From assembly GCA_017998915.1 (NCBI GenBank), contig JAGOCE010000136.1, forward strand, positions 1 to 10,015: DNA of 10,015 nucleotides, read 5' to 3'. Every line of letters begins with the position of its first letter. Within the stretch, counting starts at the first letter, position 1. The notes beneath the pieces were generated by a model, which saw only the letters and a program-made list of their open reading frames with translations, did no database searches and was not told the origin of the DNA. The stretch comes from Candidatus Ozemobacteraceae bacterium (GTDB lineage Bacteria; Muiribacteriota; Ozemobacteria; Ozemobacterales; Ozemobacteraceae). Positions 1 to 10,015 of the stretch are shown here, one piece after another. Made by a program: the position numbers and the translations under genes.

Positions 1-1
1 G

Positions 2-391
2 ACGTGCATCGACGAAACAGCCCGCCGGCGCGAGATCCAGGATCGGTACAACAGGGAACATGGCATCGAGCCAGCCTCGATCGTGAAGAAGCTGCCGAAG
101 ATCTTTCTCCCCGGCCAGGAAGGCGGCGAACAGGGGGCAGGCGGTAAAATCGACCAGGATCGCCTTGCCGAACTGGTCAGAGAGCTCCAGGCCGAGATGG
201 ACAAGGCCGCCCGCGAGCTTCAGTTCGAGCGCGCCGCGATGATCCGTGACGAGATCATCGCCCTCCAGGACGAGCATCTCGAAGCCGATGTCCTCATGGG
301 CCTCGGAAAAGCGCTCCGCTCCGGCCGCGACAGAAGCATGGCCAAGAAACGCAACTCCCGACGCTCCCGTTCCCCGCAGAAACCGGGCTGA
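2..391 (+). CDS. uvrB: Excinuclease ABC subunit B (UvrB), C-terminal fragment including the UVR domain; 5' end lies outside the window
   Basis: Frame-2 translation from position 2 reads TCIDETARRREIQDRYNREHGIEPASIVKK..., matching the conserved UvrB C-terminus (RRRE.Q..YN.EHGITP). It is followed by a UVR-domain-like helix, ELQAEMDKAARELQFERAAMIRDEIIALQ. Stop codon at 389-391, followed by a G/C hairpin. Confidence 0.85.
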   Translation, partial: TCIDETARRREIQDRYNREHGIEPASIVKKLPKIFLPGQEGGEQGAGGKIDQDRLAELVRELQAEMDKAARELQFERAAMIRDEIIALQDEHLEADVLMGLGKALRSGRDRSMAKKRNSRRSRSPQKPG

Positions 392-408
392 TATCCCCCC
401 GAACGAAC

Positions 409-437
409 GCCGGGGCGGGTTTGAAGCCCGCCCCGGC
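409..437. terminator. Perfect 11-bp G/C stem (GCCGGGGCGGG / CCCGCCCCGGC) with a 7-nt loop, between convergent uvrB (+) and the 454..1083 (-) gene. Likely a bidirectional intrinsic terminator without a U-tract, as is common in high-GC genomes
   Basis: Inverted repeat read directly: 409-419 gccggggcggg, loop tttgaag, 427-437 cccgccccggc. It sits 18 nt after the uvrB stop and 17 nt after the minus-strand gene stop. Confidence 0.55.
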
Positions 438-453
438 GCGTGGTGTCGGGAGA

Positions 454-1083
454 TCAGCGAGTCGGTTTGAGGGGTTTGTTGAACACGTCGAAGGGAATGT
501 CTTCCTTCAGCTCGGTTCGCAGGAACGTGAGAATGTCCATCGAGAGGGAACGCATCTTCTCGCTGTCGGTCCAAAACAGCTCGAACACGACACGTTCGGC
601 CTCTTTGCGCAGAGCAGCGAGGTTCGTCGAGTGGTGGTTGATCTTCAGGTTCTCGATGTGCGAGGCGATCTTGTAAAACTCGGCGCTGATCAGCTCGGGA
701 CCTTCGGGTGAATCATCGAATCCCTTCGGGAAGTTTGGATACTTCTCGCAAAATTCTATTTCAGCCGCTATATGGCGAAACAACGCGGGTTTGTCCTCGA
801 GACCCATCCGGACAGCCAGCAAGTGAGCCGCGACAACCCGGGGATCGTCGTTCTTCTTCGCATACTGGAGCGCGGCCACGAGGTCGTTGATGCCGGCATA
901 CGCCGAGTTGATCGAGCCGCAGGTATACAGCATCTTCTTGAGAACGACCTGTTTCGTGAGCTGGTACGGATCACGATGCAGTGCCGCAAACTCGGGGGTC
1001 ACCGCCCCGGCGGGCGCCTCAAATGACAATGCGAACACCATGACGAAGATTCCGACCATCGACGCAATCGCTCGTTTACCCAT
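454..1083 (-). CDS. Hypothetical secreted protein with an N-terminal signal peptide (MGKRAIASMVGIFVMVFALSFEAPAGA). The longest ORF extends to 1149
   Basis: Minus-strand ORF with high GC3 over most of its length. The textbook n/h/c signal-peptide arrangement begins at the internal Met (ATG at 1083-1081). The 22 codons upstream of that Met have GC3 of only about 50%, versus about 74% downstream, so 1083 is the favoured start. No recognisable family. Confidence 0.55.
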   Translation of the reverse strand: MGKRAIASMVGIFVMVFALSFEAPAGAVTPEFAALHRDPYQLTKQVVLKKMLYTCGSINSAYAGINDLVAALQYAKKNDDPRVVAAHLLAVRMGLEDKPALFRHIAAEIEFCEKYPNFPKGFDDSPEGPELISAEFYKIASHIENLKINHHSTNLAALRKEAERVVFELFWTDSEKMRSLSMDILTFLRTELKEDIPFDVFNKPLKPTR

Positions 1084-1161
1084 GTATGCATTGTACACAC
1101 CAATGCCCTGATTGGCAACCCGCCCACCAATCCGTCCAAAGACGCTCATGGTCGTGAGCGC

Positions 1162-2211
1162 CTATGGCAACGGCTTGTGGGGATTCGAGGCGTGGTCGAC
1201 GAGACGATCGAGTTCGGAACGGAGTTTTCGGAGTTCCTCGACGCGCCCGTTGAGAACGAGATACTGGAAATTCGGGTTTCGGAAGATTTCCATCTTCCGG
1301 AAATCCGGCTCGAGAAACCACCCTTCCGTCAGACGCTGGATCAACATGTTTGCAGGAGCAATCAGAAGAGCGACCGCAAAAGAAGGAAGAATCTGGGCCC
1401 ACCAGGAAGTTTCGTCGATATACTTCTGAAGATCGTTCTGGAGAATGTTTTCGACAGTTTTATACAGAGCCGCCGTTCCCAGGGTCAACAGCATGTAATA
1501 CACTCCGGTGCCGATGACCACGTCGATATCGATCAGCTTGAATCGCATCGTGGCGTACACCACGATGATCATGAACGCGAGAGTCGCCAACTCGACGATC
1601 GGGAACTCGAACACCCAGAAGATCTGATGCCTCAACAGCATGTCGTGAAGGGCGCACAGGCAGTAAAATGCTTCGCCGAGCAGGATGAACTCCACCCTGC
1701 GGCGCATCATCTCGTCCTCGTGCGTCAGGCGCGCTTTGACGAGCCGGTATGCAATCCGTATCAGGAGCACGCCCATGACGAAGGCATACGCCTTCATGAG
1801 CGGCCCGCCGATCGCCAGCGGGCCGTCGGGCGTCATTTCGAGTCCCGATCGGAAAATCATCTCGGTCGGCAATGCCGCGAGGAACACGGCGGTCGCAGCC
1901 CATGCGAGCCCCCGCGTCCTCTTGTTCGCGTATCTGCCTTCGAGAACGGCATCTGGAAACTCGGCCAGCAAGGGAATCAGCAGGATCGTGCCTATCCATC
2001 CGGCTCGCACGAACCAGATCGTCGGCAGAACAAAAAACAGCACCTGGAAGACGTTGTACAGCATCGATGCCGTCGCGATGCCCGCAATGACGCGGTTAAC
2101 CGGCTGGTGTCGAGCCCGCGCCAGGACGAACCAGGCCACGAGCCCCGAAATGCCGGCCGAGATCATCGACGTGGCCAAGCGCAGGGTGGGTGTCAGCACG
2201 ATATCTTCCAT
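1162..2211 (-). CDS. Polytopic inner-membrane protein with about 8-9 predicted TM helices and an approximately 70-aa charged, coiled-coil-like cytoplasmic tail. Function unknown, possibly a sensor or transporter-like protein
   Basis: ORF 1162..2307. The preferred start is Met33 (MEDIVLTPTL...), preceded by GGAGG 7 nt upstream (reverse complement of 2212-2225: ggaggaatggcATG). There are multiple hydrophobic segments of about 20 aa each. The tail reads ...RVEELRKLRSELDRLVDHASNPHKPLP. The + strand antisense ORF 1177..2370 translates to a low-complexity D/E/H/R-rich sequence and is rejected. Confidence 0.75.
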   Translation of the reverse strand: MEDIVLTPTLRLATSMISAGISGLVAWFVLARARHQPVNRVIAGIATASMLYNVFQVLFFVLPTIWFVRAGWIGTILLIPLLAEFPDAVLEGRYANKRTRGLAWAATAVFLAALPTEMIFRSGLEMTPDGPLAIGGPLMKAYAFVMGVLLIRIAYRLVKARLTHEDEMMRRRVEFILLGEAFYCLCALHDMLLRHQIFWVFEFPIVELATLAFMIIVVYATMRFKLIDIDVVIGTGVYYMLLTLGTAALYKTVENILQNDLQKYIDETSWWAQILPSFAVALLIAPANMLIQRLTEGWFLEPDFRKMEIFRNPNFQYLVLNGRVEELRKLRSELDRLVDHASNPHKPLP

Positions 2212-2295
2212 GCCATTCCTCCGGGCCCATCTAAGCACGAGTGGCTCTCTCCGTGCAACAAGACGGATACGGTTCGGCACCGATTTTTCCGGGGC

Positions 2296-2324
2296 TTGCC
2301 AAGGCATACGACATGTGGTATGTT
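2296..2324 (+). promoter_or_regulatory. Candidate sigma70-type promoter, TTGCCA-17 bp-TATGTT, with a second TTGACA hexamer at 2341-2346. Predicted transcription start near 2331
   Basis: Read directly: 2296-2301 ttgcca, 17-bp spacer, 2319-2324 tatgtt. It lies in an approximately 330-bp region of lower GC between divergent genes. Confidence 0.35.
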
Positions 2325-2565
2325 TCTAGTAGAGGCTGGTTTGACAATCATGTCCCTGCGCTGTCCGTGATGATGCAGGTTTAATTGAGCCGACACCTGT
2401 ATCTAGAGGGAATCTGTCTTCAACCCCCGCTGAGATCCCCTTACGAACAGGATCACTCCTGTTACGAAGACCTCATTGTGAGGCTGAGCAGACAACCGTT
2501 TACCGCGAGGTTAGGGTTCAATTGTCCTTCACACGGCAGAGGCGGGGGCCTACCCGCACCTCAAC

Positions 2566-2601
2566 GAAGCCGCCGGTAGTTTTCCGGCGGCTTCGTCTTT
2601 T
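2566..2601 (+). terminator. Rho-independent terminator on the + strand. Perfect 11-bp stem GAAGCCGCCGG / CCGGCGGCTTC, loop tagtttt, then GTCTTTT
   Basis: Inverted repeat 2566-2576 / 2584-2594 followed by the T-rich tract 2595-2601. On the opposite strand the hairpin is not followed by a T-run, so it is orientated for + strand transcripts, 40-90 nt upstream of the next + ORF. Confidence 0.6.
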
Positions 2602-2643
2602 CCCACGGTCCATGGCTCCCGAGGCGCGAGATACCGGTAATTT

Positions 2644-3747
2644 TTGTTCTGGGTGTTGCCTTTCGCCGTCCAGGTGGGTATATTTACCCCCATCATGAAG
2701 GCACGCCCTCTTCTCATCGCATCCGAAACGCTCAAAGCCGCCGATCTCATTGCTCCGCCCTTCGGACTCGAGCCCGAAGAGTTCATGCTGACCAGACTCG
2801 AGTCTCTGAATGTGATGGGGTTTGCGCGTTTCGCCGCCGTCGTGATTCATGAACCGCCTGCCGACCTGTTTCGCAGGTTGTCCCTCGGACTCCGCGACCG
2901 CCCTGATGCTGAAGCGCTCTGGTCACTTATTTCGCAGGCTCGATCCGTACCAGTTTACGTGCTGTCAGCCAAGATAGAGCGCCCCCCCACGGAACTTTCC
3001 GATCTCGGCATCGGTACAACCTTGCCCCAGCGACTTCGCGAACTGTGCGCCACGCCCGCAGCCTTCGCGCTTGACGGTTCCGGACCTTCGGTTTCCGCCG
3101 CTTCTTTGCTGACCGCCGATGATGTACGGGCCATGCATCTGAAGGGTGTGAAGACGCTCGACGAGAACACCCCGATGACCGACTGGGCCAGGGAAACGGC
3201 GACCGCGCTCGGCATCAGGCTCACGCCGGCAGCTTCCCGCCGCGTTCTGATTCCCGTCGAAGCCCGGGGCGTCAGGCACCTGGCGAGCTTCGGCGAGCTT
3301 TTGCACGGTTTCGCATCGTTCCCGCTCGCGCCGCTGTTCGTCGTTGCGGAGCCCCTCATGCCGGCGTTCAACGAGCTTTTCCCGTCGCTGCGCGGCAGGC
3401 TCGTCGCGCCAAGCATCCACTGGGAGAAACAGGGCGCCTTCACGGGTGAAATATCACTTGCTATGGCGCTCGATCTCGGGTGCGAGGGTGCGATCGTCCC
3501 CGATCTGCCGGCGTATGCTGAGCCGAAGCGATTCGCGCAGTTGTGCGCCGCCGCGGCTGGAAAGCAGTTTTCGCTTTATGTGCCCTCCCCCCTTGCCGCC
3601 CGGGATTGTTGTGCTATAATTGGCAACCGGATCTTCCGGCTCACGGATGGCCGGGGCCGCTCCGCATCGGAGCTGCCGAAAGACGGAGCCCTCATCATGA
3701 AGGGCTGCGAACTCGAGAAGATTGTCCAGGAAAGGAACAAGCCGTGA
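2644..3747 (+). CDS. Hypothetical protein whose C-terminal half carries a degenerate triosephosphate isomerase (TIM)-like segment. Possibly a decaying or pseudogenised TIM-family gene of the BMC locus. The start is uncertain (TTG 2644 or ATG 2695)
   Basis: Residues about 199-285 (nt 3238-3498) read RRVLIPVEARG...APLFVVAEPLMPAFNELFPSL...VAPSIHWEKQGAFTGEISLAMALDLGCEGAIV. This is co-linear with the TIM N-terminal region (KFFVGGNWKMNG...VVCAPP.AY...GAQN..K..GAFTGEIS..ML.D.G...V.LGHSERR). However, the catalytic N/K (GNWK) and H (GHSERR) positions are replaced (PVEA; PDLPAY) and the protein ends well short of a full barrel. GC3 is about 80% in the middle of the ORF but only about 65% at both ends, versus about 80% in neighbouring genes. 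A consensus extended -10 promoter lies inside the last 150 nt. The stop overlaps the pduL GTG start (GTGA). Confidence 0.4.
   Translation: MFWVLPFAVQVGIFTPIMKARPLLIASETLKAADLIAPPFGLEPEEFMLTRLESLNVMGFARFAAVVIHEPPADLFRRLSLGLRDRPDAEALWSLISQARSVPVYVLSAKIERPPTELSDLGIGTTLPQRLRELCATPAAFALDGSGPSVSAASLLTADDVRAMHLKGVKTLDENTPMTDWARETATALGIRLTPAASRRVLIPVEARGVRHLASFGELLHGFASFPLAPLFVVAEPLMPAFNELFPSLRGRLVAPSIHWEKQGAFTGEISLAMALDLGCEGAIVPDLPAYAEPKRFAQLCAAAAGKQFSLYVPSPLAARDCCAIIGNRIFRLTDGRGRSASELPKDGALIMKGCELEKIVQERNKP
3593..3620 (+). promoter_or_regulatory. Near-consensus sigma70 promoter, TTGCCG-16 bp-TGcTATAAT (extended -10). It probably drives the BMC operon from about 3627, giving an approximately 117-nt leader before pduL
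   Basis: Read directly: 3593-3598 ttgccg; 3612-3620 tgctataat (TGnTATAAT). The region is locally AT-enriched within otherwise 65% GC DNA. Confidence 0.5.
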
Positions 3748-4388
3748 TCGACGAAGCCAATGTCAAGACCATCGTAGCCGAAGTGCTCAAGCACATCGAT
3801 CTCCAGGAACGCATCCGCCCCGGAACCGTTCCAGCCGGCGTCAGCGGCCGCCACATCCACGTCTCCCAGGCCGATCTCGAAACCCTGTTCGGGGCCGGGT
3901 ATCAGCTCAAGGAAATGAAGAAGCTTTCCCAGCCCGGCCAGTTCGCGGCTGAAGAGTGCGTCATGCTCGTCGGCCGCAAGGGTGTCATCGAGAAGTGCCG
4001 CATCCTCGGGCCGGTCCGGCCGGCGACGCAGATCGAGATTTCCGGCACCGACAGCTTCACGCTCGGCGTGCCGATCGTCTATCGCGACTCGGGCGACACC
4101 AAGGGGACCCCCGGCGTCATCGTCGTCGGCCCAAAGGGCCACGTGGTATTGAAAGAAGGCATCATCGTCGCCAACCGCCACGTGCACCTCAGCACGAAGG
4201 AAGCCGAGAAGATGGGCCTGAAGGACATGGACCGGGTCACGGTCAAGACACAGGGTCCGCGCGCGATCGCGTTCCAGAACGTTCTGGTGCGCGTCAGCGA
4301 CAAGTTCGCCGCCGATTTCCACGTCGACAACGACGAGGGGAACGCCGCCGGCCTCAAAACGGGTGATATGGTCGAGATCGTCCGCTGA
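3744..4388 (+). CDS. pduL: PduL-type phosphotransacylase (phosphate acyltransferase, EutD/PduL family) with an N-terminal encapsulation-peptide-like amphipathic helix
   Basis: Two PduL repeat signatures: ...VSGRHIHVSQADLETLFG... and ...VANRHVHLSTKEAEKMGL.... The GTG start at 3744 is preceded by AGGAA (3731-3735) and overlaps the upstream TGA. The N-terminus, VIDEANVKTIVAEVLKHIDLQE, resembles BMC encapsulation peptides. Length of about 214 aa is typical for PduL. Confidence 0.88.
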   Translation: MIDEANVKTIVAEVLKHIDLQERIRPGTVPAGVSGRHIHVSQADLETLFGAGYQLKEMKKLSQPGQFAAEECVMLVGRKGVIEKCRILGPVRPATQIEISGTDSFTLGVPIVYRDSGDTKGTPGVIVVGPKGHVVLKEGIIVANRHVHLSTKEAEKMGLKDMDRVTVKTQGPRAIAFQNVLVRVSDKFAADFHVDNDEGNAAGLKTGDMVEIVR

Positions 4389-4466
4389 TCACGACCACCA
4401 CATAGGTTTTAGGTTTTTCGACACACGGTACACATTTCTGACAAGCCAAAATCTCAGGAGGACGTC

Positions 4467-4763
4467 ATGCAGGAAGCTCTGGGTATGATCGAAACCAAAG
4501 GTCTGACCGCTCTTATCGAAGCCACCGACGCGATGGTCAAAGCCGCCAACGTGAAGCTCGTCGGCTGGGAAAAAATCGGTTCCGGGTATGTGACCGCCTT
4601 CGTGCGCGGTGATGTCGCCGCCGTCAAAGCCGCCACCGACGCCGGTGCCGCCGCCGCCAAGAAGATCGGCGAGCTGATCTGCGTCCACGTGATTCCGCGG
4701 CCGCACGGCAACCTCGATGAGGTCATGCCGATCCGCGACAACACCCAGACCTCCAAGAAGTAA
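4467..4763 (+). CDS. BMC-H hexameric shell protein (Pfam00936; PduA/CcmK/EutM-like)
   Basis: The N-terminus, [33 protein letters not shown], is near-identical in pattern to PduA/EutM. AGGAGGA RBS at 4455-4461. 98 aa. Confidence 0.95.
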
Positions 4764-4783
4764 TCCGGGGAAATCGTCGAGTC

Positions 4784-5065
4784 ATGAATCTCGGTCGAGT
4801 CTGCGGAACCGTCGTCTGCACGCGAAAAGAAGAGCGGCTCAACGGCATGAAGTTTCTGATCGTCGAGGAACTGACGATCGAGCGCAAGCCGACGGGCCAC
4901 TTCGTCGTCGCCGTGGACGCGGTCAGCGCCGGAGCGGGCGAAACCGTACTGCTGGTCAGCGGCAGCTCGGCTCGCCTCACCGAGCGCACCCTGAACTGCC
5001 CGGTCGACGCAGCCGTCGCGGCCATCGTCGATTCGGTCGTGATGGACCACGAACGCACGACCTGA
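4784..5065 (+). CDS. BMC-P pentameric vertex protein (Pfam03319; EutN/PduN/CcmL-like)
   Basis: MNLGRVCGTVVCTRKEERLNGMKFLIVEEL... matches the EutN/PduN N-terminal pattern (M.IARVIGTVVST.K...L.G.KLL.V). 93 aa. Lies 20 bp downstream of the BMC-H gene. Confidence 0.9.
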   Translation: MNLGRVCGTVVCTRKEERLNGMKFLIVEELTIERKPTGHFVVAVDAVSAGAGETVLLVSGSSARLTERTLNCPVDAAVAAIVDSVVMDHERTT

Positions 5066-5092
5066 CCCCCGGCGGACTCCTTTGATCGATCT

Positions 5093-5129
5093 CCCGGCCC
5101 CGCGCATCGTTTTTCGCGCAGGGGCCGGG
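5093..5129 (+). other. Intercistronic G/C-rich stem-loop (CCGGCCCCGCGC / GCGCAGGGGCCGG) with a T-rich loop, between the BMC-P and aldehyde dehydrogenase genes. Possible partial terminator or RNA-processing element
   Basis: Imperfect inverted repeat read directly. No downstream U-tract. Confidence 0.3.
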
Positions 5130-5184
5130 GGTCGTGTGGTCCGCCGGCCATACAGACAGCAAGCCTCACGGCACGGGGGAACGA

Positions 5185-6603
5185 ATGTCCATTTCTCGTG
5201 ATGAGCTGGGCGTCATCGTCCAGGAAGTCCTCAGGAACCTGAAAGCATCCGGCACGGTCGCCACCGCCGTCACGCGGGCGGCGGAGCCTTCGGGCAAAGG
5301 CGTCTTTGAAAATATAGAAGACGCTATTAAGTCAGCCGTCGACGCCCAGAAGAAGCTCGTCGAGCTTCCGGTCGCCCTGCGCAAAAAGATGATCTCGAAC
5401 ATGCGCAGCCGCTGCCTCGCGAAGCTCGAGGAGCTCGCCCGCCTCGGCGTCGAGGACACCGGCTACGGCCGCGTCGATGACAAGCTCCAGAAAAACCGGC
5501 TCGCCATCACGAAGACACCCGGCATCGAAGATCTCCAGCCCGTGTCGTATTCGGGAGACGACGGTCTGACGCTCGTCGAACAGGCCCCTTACGGTGTCAT
5601 CGGGGCCATCACCCCCTCGACCAACCCGTCCGAGACGATCATCTGCAACTCGATCGGCATGATCGCGGCCGGCAACGCCGTCGTGTTCGGCCCCCACCCC
5701 GGCGCAGCGAAGATCAGCCGATTCACCGTCGAACTGCTGAACGAAGCCGTCATCGAGGCGGGCGGACCCGCCAATCTGATGACGATGGCCTCGAAGCCGA
5801 GCATCGAGAACGCGCAGATCCTGATGACCCACCCGTCGATCCGGCTGCTGGTCGTGACCGGCGGCCCCGCCGTGGTCGCCGCCGCCGCCAAGTGCGGCAA
5901 GAAATACATCGCCGCCGGTCCGGGCAACCCGCCCGCCGTCGTCGACGAGACGGCCGACCTGAAAAAAGCCGCGCGCGATATTATATCCGGCGCCACACTC
6001 GACAACAACGTGCTCTGCATCGCCGAGAAGGAAATCATCGTCGTCGAGTCGGTCGCCGAGGAGCTGAAGCGGCATCTGCGCAACAGCGGGGCCTACGAGG
6101 CGTCGGCGCGAGAGATCATCCAGCTCGAGAAGCTGGTGATCGACCCGAAGACAGGCGGCCCGAACCGCAAGTTCGTCGGCAAGAACGCCGGCTACATCCT
6201 CGAGCAGATCGGCGTGCGCGTCCCCGATGACATCCGCATGGTGTTGTGCGAAACGGGCCCCGACCACCCCTTCGTCGTCGAAGAGTTGTTGATGCCGGTC
6301 ATCCCGCTGGTGCGCGTGCGCGACGTGAACGCCGCCATCGATCTGGCCGTCAAGGTCGAGCACGGCAACAATCACACCGCCGTGATGCACAGCCGCAATA
6401 TCGACAACCTTCATCGCATGGCTGTTCGGTGCAACTGCTCGATCTTCGTGAAGAACGGCCCGAGCTATGCCGGCCTGGGAATGGGCGGCGAGGGCTATAC
6501 AACCTTCACGATCGCCTCCCCCACCGGCGAAGGCCTGACCAGCGCCCGCACCTTCACACGCCAGCGTCGCTGCGTCATCGTCGACAGCTTCCGAATCGTT
6601 TGA
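5185..6603 (+). CDS. CoA-acylating aldehyde dehydrogenase (PduP/EutE family) with an N-terminal encapsulation peptide
   Basis: The N-terminus, MSISRDELGVIVQEVLRNLKASG, is amphipathic and encapsulation-peptide-like, followed by a linker. The core motifs CNSIGMIAAGNAVVFGPHP and ...TLDNNVLCIAEKE (catalytic Cys) match EutE/PduP. RBS GGGGGAA before the ATG at 5185. ORF track start 5134 is in frame, but 5185 fits the RBS and the encapsulation-peptide pattern. Confidence 0.92.
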   Translation: MSISRDELGVIVQEVLRNLKASGTVATAVTRAAEPSGKGVFENIEDAIKSAVDAQKKLVELPVALRKKMISNMRSRCLAKLEELARLGVEDTGYGRVDDKLQKNRLAITKTPGIEDLQPVSYSGDDGLTLVEQAPYGVIGAITPSTNPSETIICNSIGMIAAGNAVVFGPHPGAAKISRFTVELLNEAVIEAGGPANLMTMASKPSIENAQILMTHPSIRLLVVTGGPAVVAAAAKCGKKYIAAGPGNPPAVVDETADLKKAARDIISGATLDNNVLCIAEKEIIVVESVAEELKRHLRNSGAYEASAREIIQLEKLVIDPKTGGPNRKFVGKNAGYILEQIGVRVPDDIRMVLCETGPDHPFVVEELLMPVIPLVRVRDVNAAIDLAVKVEHGNNHTAVMHSRNIDNLHRMAVRCNCSIFVKNGPSYAGLGMGGEGYTTFTIASPTGEGLTSARTFTRQRRCVIVDSFRIV

Positions 6604-6610
6604 GACAACA

Positions 6611-6762
6611 CACCACAGAGTCACAGAGACACAGAGGCCCTATTTCTCTCAATCCTGTAGCTCCGCGGTGAATATGATGAAAATCGCAAGATTTACAGCA
6701 GTTCGATCTTTGTATCCTTGTGGTGAATGATCTCTGTGTCTCTTTGCCTCTGTGGTAAACCA
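6611..6762. repeat. Long-range inverted repeat spanning the aldDH-pduS intergenic region: CCACAGAGTCACAGAGACACAGAG (6611-6634) pairs with CTCTGTGTCTCTTTGCCTCTGTGG (6738-6761). It encloses an AT-richer core with promoter-like TTTACA-15 bp-TGTATCCT
   Basis: 22 of 24 positions are complementary between the arms. The right arm contains the motif CTCTGTGTC-n7-CCTCTGTGGTAAA, which is repeated at 8859-8888. Confidence 0.5.
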
Positions 6763-6812
6763 GGGGAAACTCTCACGGACGATTATTGAATACTTCGAAA
6801 CGGATCAGGAAC

Positions 6813-8126
6813 ATGGGTGATATTGCAGTAGCGGAACTTGGGTTGGTGGGGTGCGGGGGCGCGGGATTTCCGACGCATGTGAAGCTTGCGGCGCAGAACG
6901 TCGATCACCTGATCGTGAACGCTGCCGAGTGCGAACCCCTCCTCCACAAGGACAAAGAGATCCTCAAGCACGCAACGGACGAGTTTTTCAAAGGCCTGAT
7001 CCGATCGATCGATCTCACGAGGGCAAAACAGGCGCATATCGCGATGAAGCGCAAATATGCCGATCTGCTTGAAACGCTCGAAAAGGCGATTCCCGACAAG
7101 CGGATATCGATGCTGCCCCTCGGCGACTTTTACCCGTCGGGCGATGAATACGAACTGGTATATGAAGCGAGCGGCCGGCTGATCCCGTTCGGCGGCATTC
7201 CGCTGCACGTCGGGTGCGTCGTCAGCAATGTCGAGACGCTGCTGAACCTCGGCCGCAACCGGCCGGTCACGACGAAGATCCTGAGCCTTGCGGGCGCGGT
7301 TCCCAACCCGATGACCGTCGAAGTGCCCGTCGGCATCACGGTGTTCGAGGCCCTTTCCCTTTCGGGCCTGAAATCGCTCGCCGGCCTGACGGTGATCGAC
7401 GGCGGCCCGATGATGGGGCGGCTCGTGCGCGATCCGCAGACCGATGTCGTCACGAAGACCACCGGCGGCCTGATTGCGCTTCCCAAAGATCATCCCCTGA
7501 TTCGACGGATGGTGACGCCAGAGGCCCACAACAGGCAGATCGCCCGTTCGGCCTGCGACCAGTGCACCGACTGTTCCGAGCTCTGCCCCCGTGCGCTTCT
7601 CGGGTATCCCATTCGGCCGCACAAAGCGATGAGGACAGCCCAGCTTGCCCCGTTCAACGACCAGAATTATTCGCGCGATTCAATCTTCTGCAGCGAGTGC
7701 GGACTCTGTTCGCTGTTTTCCTGCCCCGAAGGCCTGCCGCCGCGTGAGATGTGCCAGATGGCGAAGCGCCACCACCTGTCCCACGGTGTCAAGCCGACCG
7801 ACTGGAAGGACGCTCCGCAGGTTCACCCGATGCGAGGCCAGCGCCGCGTGGGAATCGAACGGCTGATCAAGCGTCTGGGCTTGCTCGATTACGACCACAA
7901 GGCTCCCTGGACAACCATCCAGACACGATTCGAGAGAGTCAGACTGCCGCTGAAGATGCATGTCGGGGTGCCGGCCGAGCCGGTCGTCCGCGTTGGCGAC
8001 ACCGTCAAGGTCGGCCAGTTGATCGGTGCCGTACCCGACAAGAAGCTCGGCGCGCCCGTGCATGCATCGATCAGCGGCCGCGTCACCAGCGTCGATTCCG
8101 GCGCCATCGTCATTTCCAGGGCATGA
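6813..8126 (+). CDS. PduS/RnfC-like Fe-S flavoprotein (NADH dehydrogenase 51-kDa-subunit-like domain plus two 4Fe-4S ferredoxin motifs). BMC-associated oxidoreductase
   Basis: GxGGAGFPTHVK motif (LVGCGGAGFPTHVKL). Two CxxCxxCxxxCP clusters (CDQCTDCSELCP; CSECGLCSLFSCP). AGGAA RBS before the ATG at 6813. The upstream TTG at 6786 is a less likely start. Confidence 0.88.
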   Translation: MGDIAVAELGLVGCGGAGFPTHVKLAAQNVDHLIVNAAECEPLLHKDKEILKHATDEFFKGLIRSIDLTRAKQAHIAMKRKYADLLETLEKAIPDKRISMLPLGDFYPSGDEYELVYEASGRLIPFGGIPLHVGCVVSNVETLLNLGRNRPVTTKILSLAGAVPNPMTVEVPVGITVFEALSLSGLKSLAGLTVIDGGPMMGRLVRDPQTDVVTKTTGGLIALPKDHPLIRRMVTPEAHNRQIARSACDQCTDCSELCPRALLGYPIRPHKAMRTAQLAPFNDQNYSRDSIFCSECGLCSLFSCPEGLPPREMCQMAKRHHLSHGVKPTDWKDAPQVHPMRGQRRVGIERLIKRLGLLDYDHKAPWTTIQTRFERVRLPLKMHVGVPAEPVVRVGDTVKVGQLIGAVPDKKLGAPVHASISGRVTSVDSGAIVISRA

Positions 8127-8159
8127 AGCAGCCCCTGAACCAGAACTGAGAGAACCGCC

Positions 8160-8717
8160 ATGAACATCTCGCAGAATGCCATCGGCCTCGTGGAACTGTC
8201 CAGTATCGCCATGGGCTACCAAACGACCGACGCCATGCTCAAGACCGCATCGGTCGAACTCGTCCTCTCACGCACCATCTGCCCGGGCAAGTTCATCGTC
8301 ATGGTCTGGGGCGATGTGGCGGCCGTCGAGGCGAGCGTCGCCGCAGGCGTTCGCGTCGGCCAGGGGTATCTCGTGAACGATCTCGTCATTCCCAACCTGC
8401 ATCCCCAGATCTACCCGGCGATGACGGCAACCAACCCGATTCCCGAGACGGATGCGCTGGGCGTCGTCGAGACGTTCGACGTCGTCTCGACGATCCTCGC
8501 GGCCGATGCATCGGCCAAGGCTGCCGACGTGCAGCTCGTCGAGATCCGCATTGCAATGGCGATCGGCGGCAAGGCGTTCTACACGATGACCGGCGACGTC
8601 GCCGCCGTCGAAGCCGCCGTGGCGTCAGGGCTGAACGTGCTCGAGGGCCGCGGCCAGGTCGTCTACAGCGTCGTCATCCCGCGCCCCCGCCCCGAACTCT
8701 TCCGCGAGTTCATTTGA
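8160..8717 (+). CDS. BMC-T tandem-domain shell protein (two Pfam00936 domains; PduT-like)
   Basis: Two BMC-domain repeats: IGLVELSSIAMGYQTTDAMLKTASVELV... and LGVVETFDVVSTILAADASAKAADVQLV.... 185 aa. Confidence 0.9.
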   Translation: MNISQNAIGLVELSSIAMGYQTTDAMLKTASVELVLSRTICPGKFIVMVWGDVAAVEASVAAGVRVGQGYLVNDLVIPNLHPQIYPAMTATNPIPETDALGVVETFDVVSTILAADASAKAADVQLVEIRIAMAIGGKAFYTMTGDVAAVEAAVASGLNVLEGRGQVVYSVVIPRPRPELFREFI

Positions 8718-8768
8718 GAGACACAACGGGAACAGCTTCAGCACAGAGAACACAAAGAGCACTGAGTT

Positions 8769-8888
8769 CTCACAGAGAACCGCTGTTTTCTGGTAATAGT
8801 CTTAATGCTGTATAATATAAACTTTACTTATACAAGCGGTTGTTTTTCTCTGTGAAACCTCTGTGTCCATTGTGTCCTCTGTGGTAAA
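8769..8888. repeat. Second copy of the intergenic element (BMC-T to rpiB spacer): CACAGAG repeats after the stop, an AT-rich core containing TGTATAAT, and the motif CTCTGTGTC-n10-CCTCTGTGGTAAA at 8859-8888
   Basis: The motif is shared with 6731-6759. Partial inverted complementarity exists between CACAGAGAACCGCT (8771-8784) and AGCGGTTGTTTTTCTCTGTG (8835-8854). Confidence 0.45.
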
Positions 8889-8926
8889 GTTTTTGGTGCT
8901 CGAAATTGCATTTGATGGAGATGGGT

Positions 8927-9391
8927 ATGCCGAAGATCGTGATTGGGGCTGATCATGGCGGGTTTCCGCTCAAGGAGGAGCTGAAGAAGCACCTGGCTAC
9001 GGCCGGCCACACGGTCGAGGACGTCGGCGCCTTTTCGACCGATCCGGTCGATTATCCCGATATCGCCTGGCTCGTGGCCAACGCGGTCGCGATGAATCCG
9101 CACACGCTCGGCATCGTCATCGACGGGGCGGGCATCGGCTCCTGCATGGCCGCGAACAAGGTCCCCGGCGTGCGGGCTGCCTGCTGCAACGATCTCTACA
9201 CCGCGCGCAACAGCCGCGAGCACAATCACGCGAACTTGCTCACCCTGGGCAGCATGGTGATCGGCCCCGGCTTGATGAAGCAGATCGTCGACCTCTGGAT
9301 CTCCACCCAGCCCGCTCCCGGCCGCCACGCCGCCCGCGTCGCCAAGATCACGCGCCTCGAGTCGCTGGGTGCACCGCCTCAGAAGGTATAA
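8927..9391 (+). CDS. rpiB: Sugar-phosphate isomerase of the RpiB/LacAB family (ribose-5-phosphate isomerase B-like)
   Basis: MPKIVIGADHGGFPLKEEL...GIVIDGAGIGSCMAANKVPGVRAACC...REHNHANLLTLGS...GRHAARV is co-linear with E. coli RpiB (KIAFGCDHVGF...GILICGTGVGISIAANKF.GIRA..C...RQHNDTNVLAFG...GGRHQQRV). GGAG RBS before the ATG at 8927. Confidence 0.88.
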   Translation: MPKIVIGADHGGFPLKEELKKHLATAGHTVEDVGAFSTDPVDYPDIAWLVANAVAMNPHTLGIVIDGAGIGSCMAANKVPGVRAACCNDLYTARNSREHNHANLLTLGSMVIGPGLMKQIVDLWISTQPAPGRHAARVAKITRLESLGAPPQKV

Positions 9392-9484
9392 CTCCTTCCA
9401 ATTTCCTTTTGTGAACAGACTTTCCAGGCGAATTTTCTACGTCTCGGGGAAGAGGTTGCATGAAATGTGGTATCATTTCTTGTG

Positions 9485-9742
9485 ATGCCTACCGTTCTCA
9501 TGATTTACGGCTGGAGATTCTTTTTCTACGCGAACGAGCGCAATGAGCCTATTCATATTCATTGCAAAAGCGGAGACAAGGAATGCAAATACTGGCTCGA
9601 CTGCGACGATTTTGACGCAATTGAAGCCTATTCGTACAATATGAGCCCTTCAGACAAGAGGCTCGTCAAGAAGCTGATTTTCGAATATTTCGAACTCATC
9701 GAGAATTCATGGAAAGAATTTCAAGAGAGAAAGTCTTTATGA
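9485..9742 (+). CDS. DUF4160-family small protein (about 85 aa) in a low-GC island. Function unknown
   Basis: MPTVLMIYGWRFFFYANERNEPIHIHCKSGDKECKYWL matches the DUF4160 hallmark (MPT...GyRFfFYsNE.nEP.HiHv...g.eaKfWL). Local GC is about 42% versus about 65% upstream. Its stop overlaps the next gene start (ATGA). Confidence 0.78.
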   Translation: MPTVLMIYGWRFFFYANERNEPIHIHCKSGDKECKYWLDCDDFDAIEAYSYNMSPSDKRLVKKLIFEYFELIENSWKEFQERKSL

Positions 9743-9999
9743 ATAAGAGTCACATAATCCAGGATGTTCGTTTCACGAACGGAACCATGCAGATCATGAT
9801 CGATGGAAAACCGTATGAGTTCAAGCTCAATGCTGTTTCTTCAAAATTATCTGAAGCCACCGTTGAGCAAAGAAATGCCTTTGAAGTTTCACCTTCGGGT
9901 TATGGCATCCACTGGCCGCTGGTCGATGAAGATCTTTCGATCGACGGGTTATTGAATATTTCCCATGCGCTTCCGGTAAAAAAGACGAAAGCGGCATGA
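9739..9999 (+). CDS. DUF2442-family small protein (about 86 aa), translationally coupled to the DUF4160 gene
   Basis: ...MIDGKPYEFKLNAVSSKL...GYGIHWPLVDEDLSIDGLL matches the DUF2442 C-terminal pattern (I.WP..DeDls.d.L). Its ATG at 9739 overlaps the upstream TGA, with a purine-rich RBS, GAGAGAAAG, before it. The alternative in-frame start at 9709 lies inside the upstream gene. Confidence 0.75.
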   Translation: MNKSHIIQDVRFTNGTMQIMIDGKPYEFKLNAVSSKLSEATVEQRNAFEVSPSGYGIHWPLVDEDLSIDGLLNISHALPVKKTKAA

Positions 10000-10015
10000 A
10001 TCAAGGAGCGAAATA
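9996..10015 (+). CDS. 5' end of a third small gene (MNQGAK...), translationally coupled by a second ATGA overlap. Runs off the window
   Basis: The ATG at 9996 overlaps the TGA at 9997-9999. Only 6 codons are visible. Confidence 0.3.

Follow-up and report, generated by a model that had tools for sequence, protein, structure and literature searches.

The 23S rRNA genes of Coxiella, Leptospira, Salmonella and other bacteria harbor intervening sequences (IVSs), small insertions with complementary termini that form a stem. In Coxiella, the IVS carries three tandem heptamers (GACAGAT) ahead of a small open reading frame (ORF) of unknown function and has a 28-bp terminal stem. RNase III cleaves this stem at the first repeat without religation of the pieces, the RNA cut out is broken down, and the ORF is in decay (PMC4990558). 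In 23S IVSs generally, the ORF is frequently in decay or missing, and such insertions have been proposed to derive from mobile elements (PMC4990558). Here, we describe elements whose architecture matches that of these experimentally studied insertions. They are two inverted repeats, built from the word CACAGAG and its reverse complement CTCTGTG, in two spacers of a bacterial microcompartment (BMC) operon of Candidatus Ozemobacteraceae bacterium. The operon is on the + strand of a 10,015-nt stretch (GenBank assembly GCA_017998915.1, contig JAGOCE010000136.1, positions 1 to 10,015), hereafter the window. We consider it likely that the spacers hold gene-less copies of a promiscuous, horizontally spreading inverted-repeat element, and that these copies are selfish insertions that act mainly by adding a long stem to the mRNA.

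Repetitive extragenic palindromic (REP) sequences, bacterial interspersed mosaic elements (BIMEs) and REP doublets forming hairpins (REPINs) are also short, extragenic, palindromic and high-copy, and are often found just past a stop codon or where two genes converge. A REP is one imperfect, G+C-rich palindrome with a conserved 5' GTAG; REPs are mobilized by REP-associated tyrosine transposases (RAYTs; IS200-like Y1) and are lineage-specific; REPINs are inverted doublets, and within operons REPs stabilize the upstream mRNA. Correia repeat enclosed elements (CREE) of Neisseria measure ~100-150 bp and have terminal inverted repeats but lack a transposase. They are intergenic, co-transcribed and strain-variable, and their hairpins are cleaved by RNase III. 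Found only in Neisseria, they combine a conserved interior with IHF sites, promoters that face outward and a TA target duplication. Heptamer repeats form a further group. A hairpin of 7-bp short tandemly repeated repetitive (STRR) units lies between hupS and hupL in cyanobacteria, and it has been suggested, though not demonstrated, to affect transcript stability or translational coupling (PMC2670836). TAACTGA repeats are found in Beggiatoaceae, Cyanobacteria and Bacteroidetes, and their sporadic spread across phyla has been put down to horizontal transfer with 'no mechanism evident' (PMC4679880).

The two spacers of the window separate the aldehyde dehydrogenase (AldDH) gene from the PduS-like gene (6604-6812) and the BMC-T gene from the RpiB gene (8718-8926). 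Each is 209 nt long, and their G+C content is 0.38-0.45, compared with ~0.62 in coding sequence. An earlier, sequence-only reading of the window had described one common element in both, and all of its parts were recovered in place. CACAGAG or CTCTGTG occurs 10 times in the window, where 0.85 copies are expected and 0 of 200 shuffles reached 10, and all 10 copies are confined to the two spacers. The longer motif CCTCTGTGGTAAA is present exactly at 6747-6759 and 8876-8888, with only 0.09 matches expected even when two mismatches are allowed; it ends 53 and 38 nt ahead of the next start codons (ATG at 6813 and 8927).

The left arm of element 1 (6612-6636, + strand) begins 8 nt past the AldDH stop codon and consists of ACC and three CACAGAG words separated by a single t and a single a. 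Its right arm (6732-6759, + strand) reads CTCTGTG, CTCTTTG and CTCTGTG, separated by t and c and followed by GTAAA. The inverted repeat spans 25 nt (6612-6636 and 6732-6756) and is 92% complementary, in agreement with the 22 of 24 positions counted in the sequence-only reading. Element 2 is longer, with arms of 49 nt that are 78% complementary. Its left arm (8731-8779, + strand) has the four words CACAGAG (8742), CACAAAG (8751), CACTGAG (8760) and CACAGAG (8771), and its right arm (8846-8894, + strand) has CTCTGTG (8848), CTCTGTG (8859), CATTGTG (8868) and CTCTGTG (8877), then GTAAA. Both arm pairs, located by inverted-repeat search and word matches, rank among the three longest inverted repeats in the window, and both would form terminal stems like those of IVSs (~20-30 bp). 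At the outer ends, the right arms of both elements finish in GGTAAA, and the left arms retain ACC and AGC but lack the consensus TTTAC, which is compatible with decay.

As had been proposed, both spacers are predicted to form a long-range stem. Each folds into one long hairpin (z = -2.1 and -2.8), with arm duplexes of -40.2 kcal/mol for element 1 and -47.6 kcal/mol for element 2 and left-right pairing probabilities of 0.91 and 0.81 in a 511-nt context. The long stems run into GTAAA and not into a T run; an intrinsic-terminator search gave 2 sites against 2.1 expected, and the sole site in a spacer is a 6-bp stem at 8766-8780. The view that the motif is not a named element also held: in Rfam, the window and seven canonical copies from elsewhere match only eukaryotic miRNA-hairpin models, far under threshold. 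No rRNA was found in the window by Rfam.

The right-arm motif is dispersed far beyond this operon. We scanned one genome per species for CTCTGTG-N(4-30)-CCTCTGTGGTAAA and found it in at least 120 stretches from more than 20 bacterial phyla, cultured isolates included. The chance expectation, assuming equal base frequencies, is ~29 matches; the matches share an arm architecture that is not expected of chance. The groups represented are Bacteroidota, Acidobacteriota, Chloroflexota, Planctomycetota, Verrucomicrobiota, Cyanobacteria, Chlamydiota, several proteobacterial classes, Nitrospinota, Gemmatimonadota, Hydrogenedentota and others, and a single Sediminibacterium chromosome has at least 7 sites (1.3-4.3 Mb). 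Most of the matches listed carry a third word and/or a partner arm, giving 61 left-right (L..R) and 24 right-left (R..L) pairs; solo arms and tandem arrays of arms are also among them. The consensus element has a left arm of tt(t/c)ACC followed by three CACAGAG words with n between them, an interior of 4-130 nt and an inverse right arm ending in GGT(A/G)AA. Overall, left arms contain two to four copies of CACAGAG, 1-4 nt apart, usually after TT(T/C)ACC. Some arrays mix in sister types made of other words (CTTGGCG...GGTTAA and CTCTGCG...GGTTAA).

The short elements are mostly intergenic (54 of 64), and many lie 6-60 nt from a stop codon, with gene context at these other loci taken from a crude longest-ORF caller. 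Their orientation is not biased with respect to the flanking genes (6 co-directional, 11 anti-directional), and they favor convergent over divergent gene pairs (8 vs 3). This genomic placement is the behavior of a dispersed palindromic repeat. Direct repeats of at least 5 nt abut 17 of 45 elements, compared with 6 of 45 in the displaced control; the flanks are A/T-rich, and the direct repeats have no consistent length or sequence.

Several loci contain compound arrangements. In a Mariprofundaceae metagenome-assembled genome (MAG), whole elements stand head to tail with a period of ~125 nt (L009, ~4400-4815), and in two Chloroflexota loci (L109, 6498-6804; L033, 3463-3620) arms of different words follow one another (CTCTGTG...GGTAAA, CTCTGCG...GGTTCAA, CTTGGCG...GGTTAAA). 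These arrays suggest local amplification or repeated insertion beside existing copies. In a gammaproteobacterial MAG (L057, 3980-4328), a CACAGAG arm pair surrounds 288 nt of interior, which in turn form a long inverted repeat of unrelated sequence (score 46), so that one palindromic element is nested in another. We also considered viruses as a reservoir and set them aside: IMG/VR gave only 11 matches, near a rough chance estimate, and the gene family described next matches no PHROG.

A minority of copies enclose a gene. When ORFs of 80-260 aa from ~120 otherwise unrelated loci were clustered, a single small family recurred, GxxExxY, at five loci in four phyla. The family corresponds to TIGR04256 (E down to 1e-44) and PF13366 PDDEXK_3 (E = 3e-40) and has a PD-(D/E)xK nuclease fold; the ORF-bearing counterpart of the window elements encodes a 125-aa protein of this fold, not a known transposase. 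The layout of a cassette is host stop codon, left arm, same-strand ORF, right arm and next host start codon. Such armed cassettes sit within unrelated operons, between co-directional host genes, in many phyla.

We obtained a sample that was independent of the arms by scanning metagenomes with a GxxExxY alignment, which gave 596 relatives; the best 80 were taken, and 77 of these had enough flank. With arms called at an ungapped inverted-repeat score of at least 11 between the upstream and downstream flanks, 57 of the 77 genes had inverted repeats in their own flanks, compared with 7.1% for a foreign partner and 4.3% for displaced windows. Duplex energies calculated on 145-nt cassette flanks had proved large for own and foreign partners alike and did not discriminate, and the ungapped score was used instead. 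The arm word varies between cassettes (CACAGAG, CGCAGAG, CACGAAG, CACCAAG, CACGGAG and CGCAAAG, among others), yet both arms within one cassette share it. CACAGAG is the commonest word in this sample (40 occurrences), exact CACAGAG/CTCTGTG arms are found in eight cassettes, and one cassette (L179) differs very little from element 1 of the window. In 46 cassettes the purine-rich arm lies upstream on the sense strand; in 6 the order is reversed. Cassettes are co-oriented with their neighbors (43:13 upstream, 51:10 downstream) at ~90 nt from each and, from this arrangement, evidently ride on host transcription.

For the comparison with the window, we defined the arm family operationally as 2-4 words of the form C[AG]C[ACG][AG]AG, 0-5 nt apart, with the purine-rich arm upstream. 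The window elements fit this grammar, with three and four CACAGAG-type words and the same L..R polarity relative to transcription, and they have no GxxExxY ORF between their arms. The 95-nt interior of element 1 (6637-6731, + strand) is A+T-richer and contains no cargo-family ORF and no conserved sequence, as judged by tblastn, a promoter scan and comparison with the related locus L126. The 66-nt interior of element 2 (8780-8845, + strand) is A+T-rich, contains TGTATAAT, and has no cargo remnant and no promoter-like site. In tblastn searches, no GxxExxY remnant was found in the interiors of the window or its relatives (all E > 0.1). The window copies are thus gene-less derivatives, like most copies in the census: gene-less copies are about 10 times as many as ORF-bearing ones, with ~57 of the 61 L..R pairs gene-less among the matches listed.

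One published listing gives the function of PF13366 as unknown and its history as 'multiple transfers, mixed clades' (PMC3424549), and a sequence search of the PDB found no solved structure related to GxxExxY. In the open-access literature searched, we found no description of the arms, of their link to GxxExxY, or of IVS-like elements outside rRNA. A search for other cargo with the same arms gave one DUF2513 ORF only (L063), the remaining candidates being host genes between separate elements. A defense role for GxxExxY was also considered and dropped; PADLOC returned only a faint similarity to Cas4b (E = 0.002).

The likeness to 23S IVSs has clear bounds. The window elements separate protein-coding cistrons rather than interrupting rRNA helix 9, 25 or 45, their word is CACAGAG and not the GACAGAT of Coxiella, and the cargo of CACAGAG arms is GxxExxY (PF13366), whereas that of IVSs is the four-helix-bundle S23p. 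RNase III cutting is known for IVSs, whereas for the window elements it would follow by analogy only. We searched our loci for four-helix-bundle genes, using a consensus as a search lead and confirming matches with Pfam. At L094 (4754-5168), a PF05635 '23S rRNA-intervening sequence protein' gene (E = 2e-21) has protein-coding genes on either side and sits between inverted arrays of a different word (aagcNNa / tNNgctt). This one intact example is anecdotal, but it indicates that armed cassettes outside rRNA can carry the IVS cargo family too. A second locus (L075, 2644-3166) has a frameshifted PF05635 gene beside a word-repeat hairpin and a run of CACCAGT / CCCCAGT heptamers, which we take to resemble cyanobacterial STRR units.

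The CACAGAG elements also resemble STRR and TAACTGA repeats: both are made of 7-nt units, lie in intercistronic spacers, can form hairpins and are distributed sporadically across phyla, and close relatives often have shorter, repeat-free spacers, as in this BMC operon. However, STRR and TAACTGA units are strictly tandem and mostly direct, whereas the words of the window are 1-4 variable bases apart, form inverted arm pairs and have defined ends (ACC... / ...GGT). Two papers on these repeats (PMC2670836, PMC4679880) describe no associated gene, whereas CACAGAG arms bracket GxxExxY genes.

Like REPs, CACAGAG elements are short, extragenic and palindromic, but their arms are word arrays of ~50% G+C with no GTAG, and the word is common to many phyla. 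Neither RAYT nor any other transposase family emerged beside the arms, where GxxExxY is the only recurrent family. With MITEs (miniature transposable elements that have inverted repeats), the window elements share terminal inverted repeats, small size and the lack of a transposase. They differ from Correia elements in having interiors that bear no relation from copy to copy, no clear target duplication and no predicted promoter. From these sequence features, the CACAGAG element appears to be neither a REP/REPIN nor a Correia-type MITE.

Homologues of the PduS-like protein point to a Riflebacteria (Ozemobacteraceae) origin for the window, and not to the planctomycete-type BMC that its gene content had suggested. 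We compared the window with seven related Riflebacteria BMC loci (L126, L124, L128, L129, L221, L222 and L223). The AldDH-PduS and BMC-T-RpiB spacers measure 172 and 273 nt in L126 (PduS identity 88%) and 11 and 112 nt in L124 (94%). The AldDH-PduS spacer is 64 nt in L128 (71%), 94 nt in L129 (71%) and 14 nt in L221 (67%), and in all three BMC-T and RpiB overlap; the two spacers are 105 and 0 nt in L222 (68%) and 2 and 6 nt in L223 (61%). Arms of the general word grammar were found only in the window and L126 and were absent from ~88 kb of the remaining related loci. The lack of conservation in orthologous loci that would count against the sequence-only reading is seen in six of the seven related operons, which have no such arms, and the BMC operon evidently works without the elements, judging from these compact relatives.

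L126 has orthologous elements at both positions, with conserved leader and tail sequences. In L124, element 1 is gone and element 2 is reduced to debris. Protein and DNA identities make the window and L124 sisters and L126 the outgroup. Because of this branching order and the compact operons of the other relatives, the simplest history, as far as it can be read from sequence, would be insertion into a compact operon in the common ancestor of the three lineages and later loss in L124. In the BMC-T-RpiB spacers of L124 (11906-12017) and L126 (4119-4391), we also observed arrays of a second word type (ATCCGCAGA / CGCAGAT / CACAGAT), nested in or beside the CACAGAG element of these relatives and resembling the GACAGAT heptamers of the Coxiella IVS.

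Between the window and L126, identity is 0.60 at four-fold sites. The spacer 1 arms are 0.92 and 0.87 identical, whereas the interiors are unalignable (0.43 for element 1, and 0.38 for element 2, whose L126 interior is 151 nt). In spacer 2, both arms changed in concert (four words vs three), and all four stems in the two lineages remain strong (-37 to -48 kcal/mol). The arms are thus kept or homogenized as the interiors drift. This may reflect selection on the stem, or it may reflect homogenizing mutation, such as quasi-palindrome correction or conversion to the family consensus.

We interpret the elements as selfish passengers that are not part of BMC regulation. In the proposed mechanism, the arms would pair in the polycistronic mRNA into a 25- to 45-bp stem. 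By analogy with the 23S rRNA IVS, this stem would be a likely substrate of RNase III or a barrier to 3' exonucleases. Its processing would split or differentially stabilize the ...aldDH, pduS-BMC-T and rpiB... segments. Such cleavage, or an effect on the stability of the operon mRNA, is plausible on this analogy, and spread would probably occur through a GxxExxY nuclease supplied in trans. The sequence-only reading had suggested that the hairpins could set the relative mRNA stability of the flanking cistrons. This may be so, in which case the effect would be incidental to a generic element or would have been co-opted from it later.

Several observations weigh against the selfish-insertion interpretation. 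Variable arm positions do not covary in 45 CACAGAG-type elements (0.67 within elements, 0.68 with shuffled partners). Selection thus cannot be shown to act on pairing, and the arms could be independent protein-binding word arrays. The conservation of the spacer 1 arms, well above the neutral rate, could mean local function and not homogenization. No clear target-site duplication was detected among the 45 elements, and no mobility mechanism is known for GxxExxY proteins. The only host-lineage copies within the ~18 kb visible are the two in the BMC operon, and the three copies of L126 are all inside its BMC operon.

Co-option would reconcile a generic origin with local function, the stems being kept in this clade to tune the operon. 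Possible roles are shielding of the upstream aldDH and shell-gene segments from 3' decay, uncoupling of translation, and provision of processing sites that set enzyme-to-shell ratios. REP sequences tune some E. coli operons in this way. The high identity of the spacer 1 arms relative to four-fold sites, the concerted change in spacer 2 and the strength of all four stems would fit such a role, and the STRR hairpin between hupS and hupL offers a precedent (PMC2670836). L129 (5907-6000) and L222 (5896-6000) have an unrelated hairpin of their own in the AldDH-PduS spacer (a[ga]a[ag]gctgtatc ... gatacagc[ct]t), apparently with a compensatory difference between the two, and a stem at this junction may be generally tolerated or useful. 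However, L124 has lost element 1 completely, leaving an 11-nt spacer, and retains only debris of element 2, which argues against necessity of the elements. Four other relatives have a compact operon with no such element, and quasi-palindrome correction or conversion to the family consensus could explain the arm conservation equally well. On this evidence, we regard co-option as unlikely.

The arms could instead act as single-stranded RNA or DNA heptamer arrays that are bound by a protein, with the stem incidental. The binder might be the GxxExxY nuclease or a general RNA-binding protein (S1, Csp, CsrA), as proposed for TAACTGA repeats, for which MacGregor 2015 suggested a post-transcriptional regulator that binds heptamer repeats (PMC4679880). 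The lack of fine-scale covariation between arms is as expected for such arrays, as is the occurrence of solo arms, tandem arm arrays and both arm orders (L..R and R..L), and the upstream arm of ORF-bearing cassettes has a strong strand polarity (46 to 6). Yet the word differs between cassettes while remaining the same in both arms (57 of 77 vs 7% for foreign partners), as pairing, or recognition by a dimer, would require. Gene-less elements have no orientation bias relative to flanking genes (6 vs 11), and the predicted pairing probabilities are high. We therefore give this possibility little credence.

That the elements form a BMC-specific cis-regulatory module, with the repeats as operators and the A+T-rich cores as internal promoters for pduS and rpiB, is very hard to sustain: both copies do lie in one operon, their cores are A+T-rich, one with TGTATAAT, and no further copy lies in ~18 kb of the host lineage, but the motif occurs at unrelated intergenic sites in more than 20 phyla, also flanking GxxExxY genes, and is absent from six of seven orthologous operons, which together argue against a BMC-specific control element, and the cores are only 0.38-0.43 identical to those of L126. 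The -10-like box and enclosed promoter of the sequence-only reading likewise found no backing in a consensus scan for sigma-70-like sites (-35 and -10 hexamers 16-18 nt apart; 0 in 6500-9000 vs 0.7 expected; other promoter types lie outside the scan), and its alternative of a transcription-factor binding site was not supported.

The BMC operon comprises, by Pfam, a TIM-like gene followed by PduL (PF06130), BMC-H, BMC-P, AldDH, PduS-like flavoprotein, BMC-T and RpiB genes. Gene starts were taken from gene calls on identical contigs, and the AldDH start from the 472-aa gene call of its orthologues. Upstream of element 1 is the AldDH gene (5185-6603, + strand; PF00171). The PduS-like flavoprotein / Fe-S gene (6813-8126, + strand; PF01512, PF13375 and PF13534) lies between the elements. 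Element 2 follows the gene for the BMC-T shell protein (8160-8717, + strand), which has two BMC domains (PF00936 x2), and precedes the gene for the RpiB-type sugar-phosphate isomerase (8927-9391, + strand; PF02502).

A different stem is present in the BMC-P-AldDH spacer. This G+C-rich hairpin (5088-5136; 18 pairs, -35.6 kcal/mol) is kept in L124 (8472-8522) and L126 (455-505) as well as the window, so that the three close lineages all have it, even the one whose CACAGAG elements were lost. Across the three, there are 0 broken pairs, 1 compensatory change and 4 wobble-compatible changes. Lying at the boundary of shell and enzyme genes, this native stem would be a better candidate for intercistronic control than the CACAGAG elements.

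Positions 2350-2552 (+ strand), immediately ahead of the BMC operon, match 6S / SsrS RNA (RF00013) over the full length, and the match recurs at the same position in two relatives (L124, 5657-5859; L129, 1778-1977). The scores of 37-43 bits are under the gathering score of 46.4, and a terminator-like hairpin follows the match at ~2563-2600; the site is probably a divergent Riflebacteria 6S RNA gene. Two small overlapping ORFs of low G+C content (0.37-0.46) lie after rpiB (9467-9742 and 9709-9999, + strand) and match DUF4160 (PF13711, E = 4e-15, with a weak match to the DhiT toxin) and DUF2442 (PF10387, E = 2e-16). The two resemble a toxin-antitoxin pair that was inserted in the gap between rpiB and the operon's following gene. 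Only the DUF2442 gene is called in L124, and L126, L128, L129 and L221-L223 lack the pair. It has no CACAGAG arms and represents another small insertion into this operon. Two ORFs of considerable size that diverge from the BMC operon (454-1149 and 1162-2307, - strand) have no Pfam or NCBIfam match, and neither do their counterparts in L123/L124 (209 and 348 aa).

For microcompartment biology, these results are a caution: the long spacers of this operon are likely recent generic insertions and not conserved regulatory architecture, and should not be taken for internal promoters. The interest of the finding lies in the element family rather than in the BMC operon: a single 7-nt word, with matching arm ends, is found across more than 20 phyla, and GxxExxY is an abundant family in which about three quarters of the sampled genes lie between such arms, with nearly no mention in the open-access literature searched. 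As a tentative and somewhat doubtful extension, word-repeat arms with a GxxExxY gene, or with other words a PF05635 gene, may constitute one undescribed class of mobile mini-cassette that crosses phyla. The class would reside in operon spacers and structural-RNA genes, ride on host transcription and be excised at the stem by RNase III. The 23S IVS would be its rRNA case, gene-less copies its non-autonomous majority, and STRR and TAACTGA repeats its footprints or arms. If this link holds, many operons are predicted to be physically split at the RNA level by such passengers, and the mini-cassette class would supply the missing mechanism for the horizontal spread of intergenic heptamer repeats.

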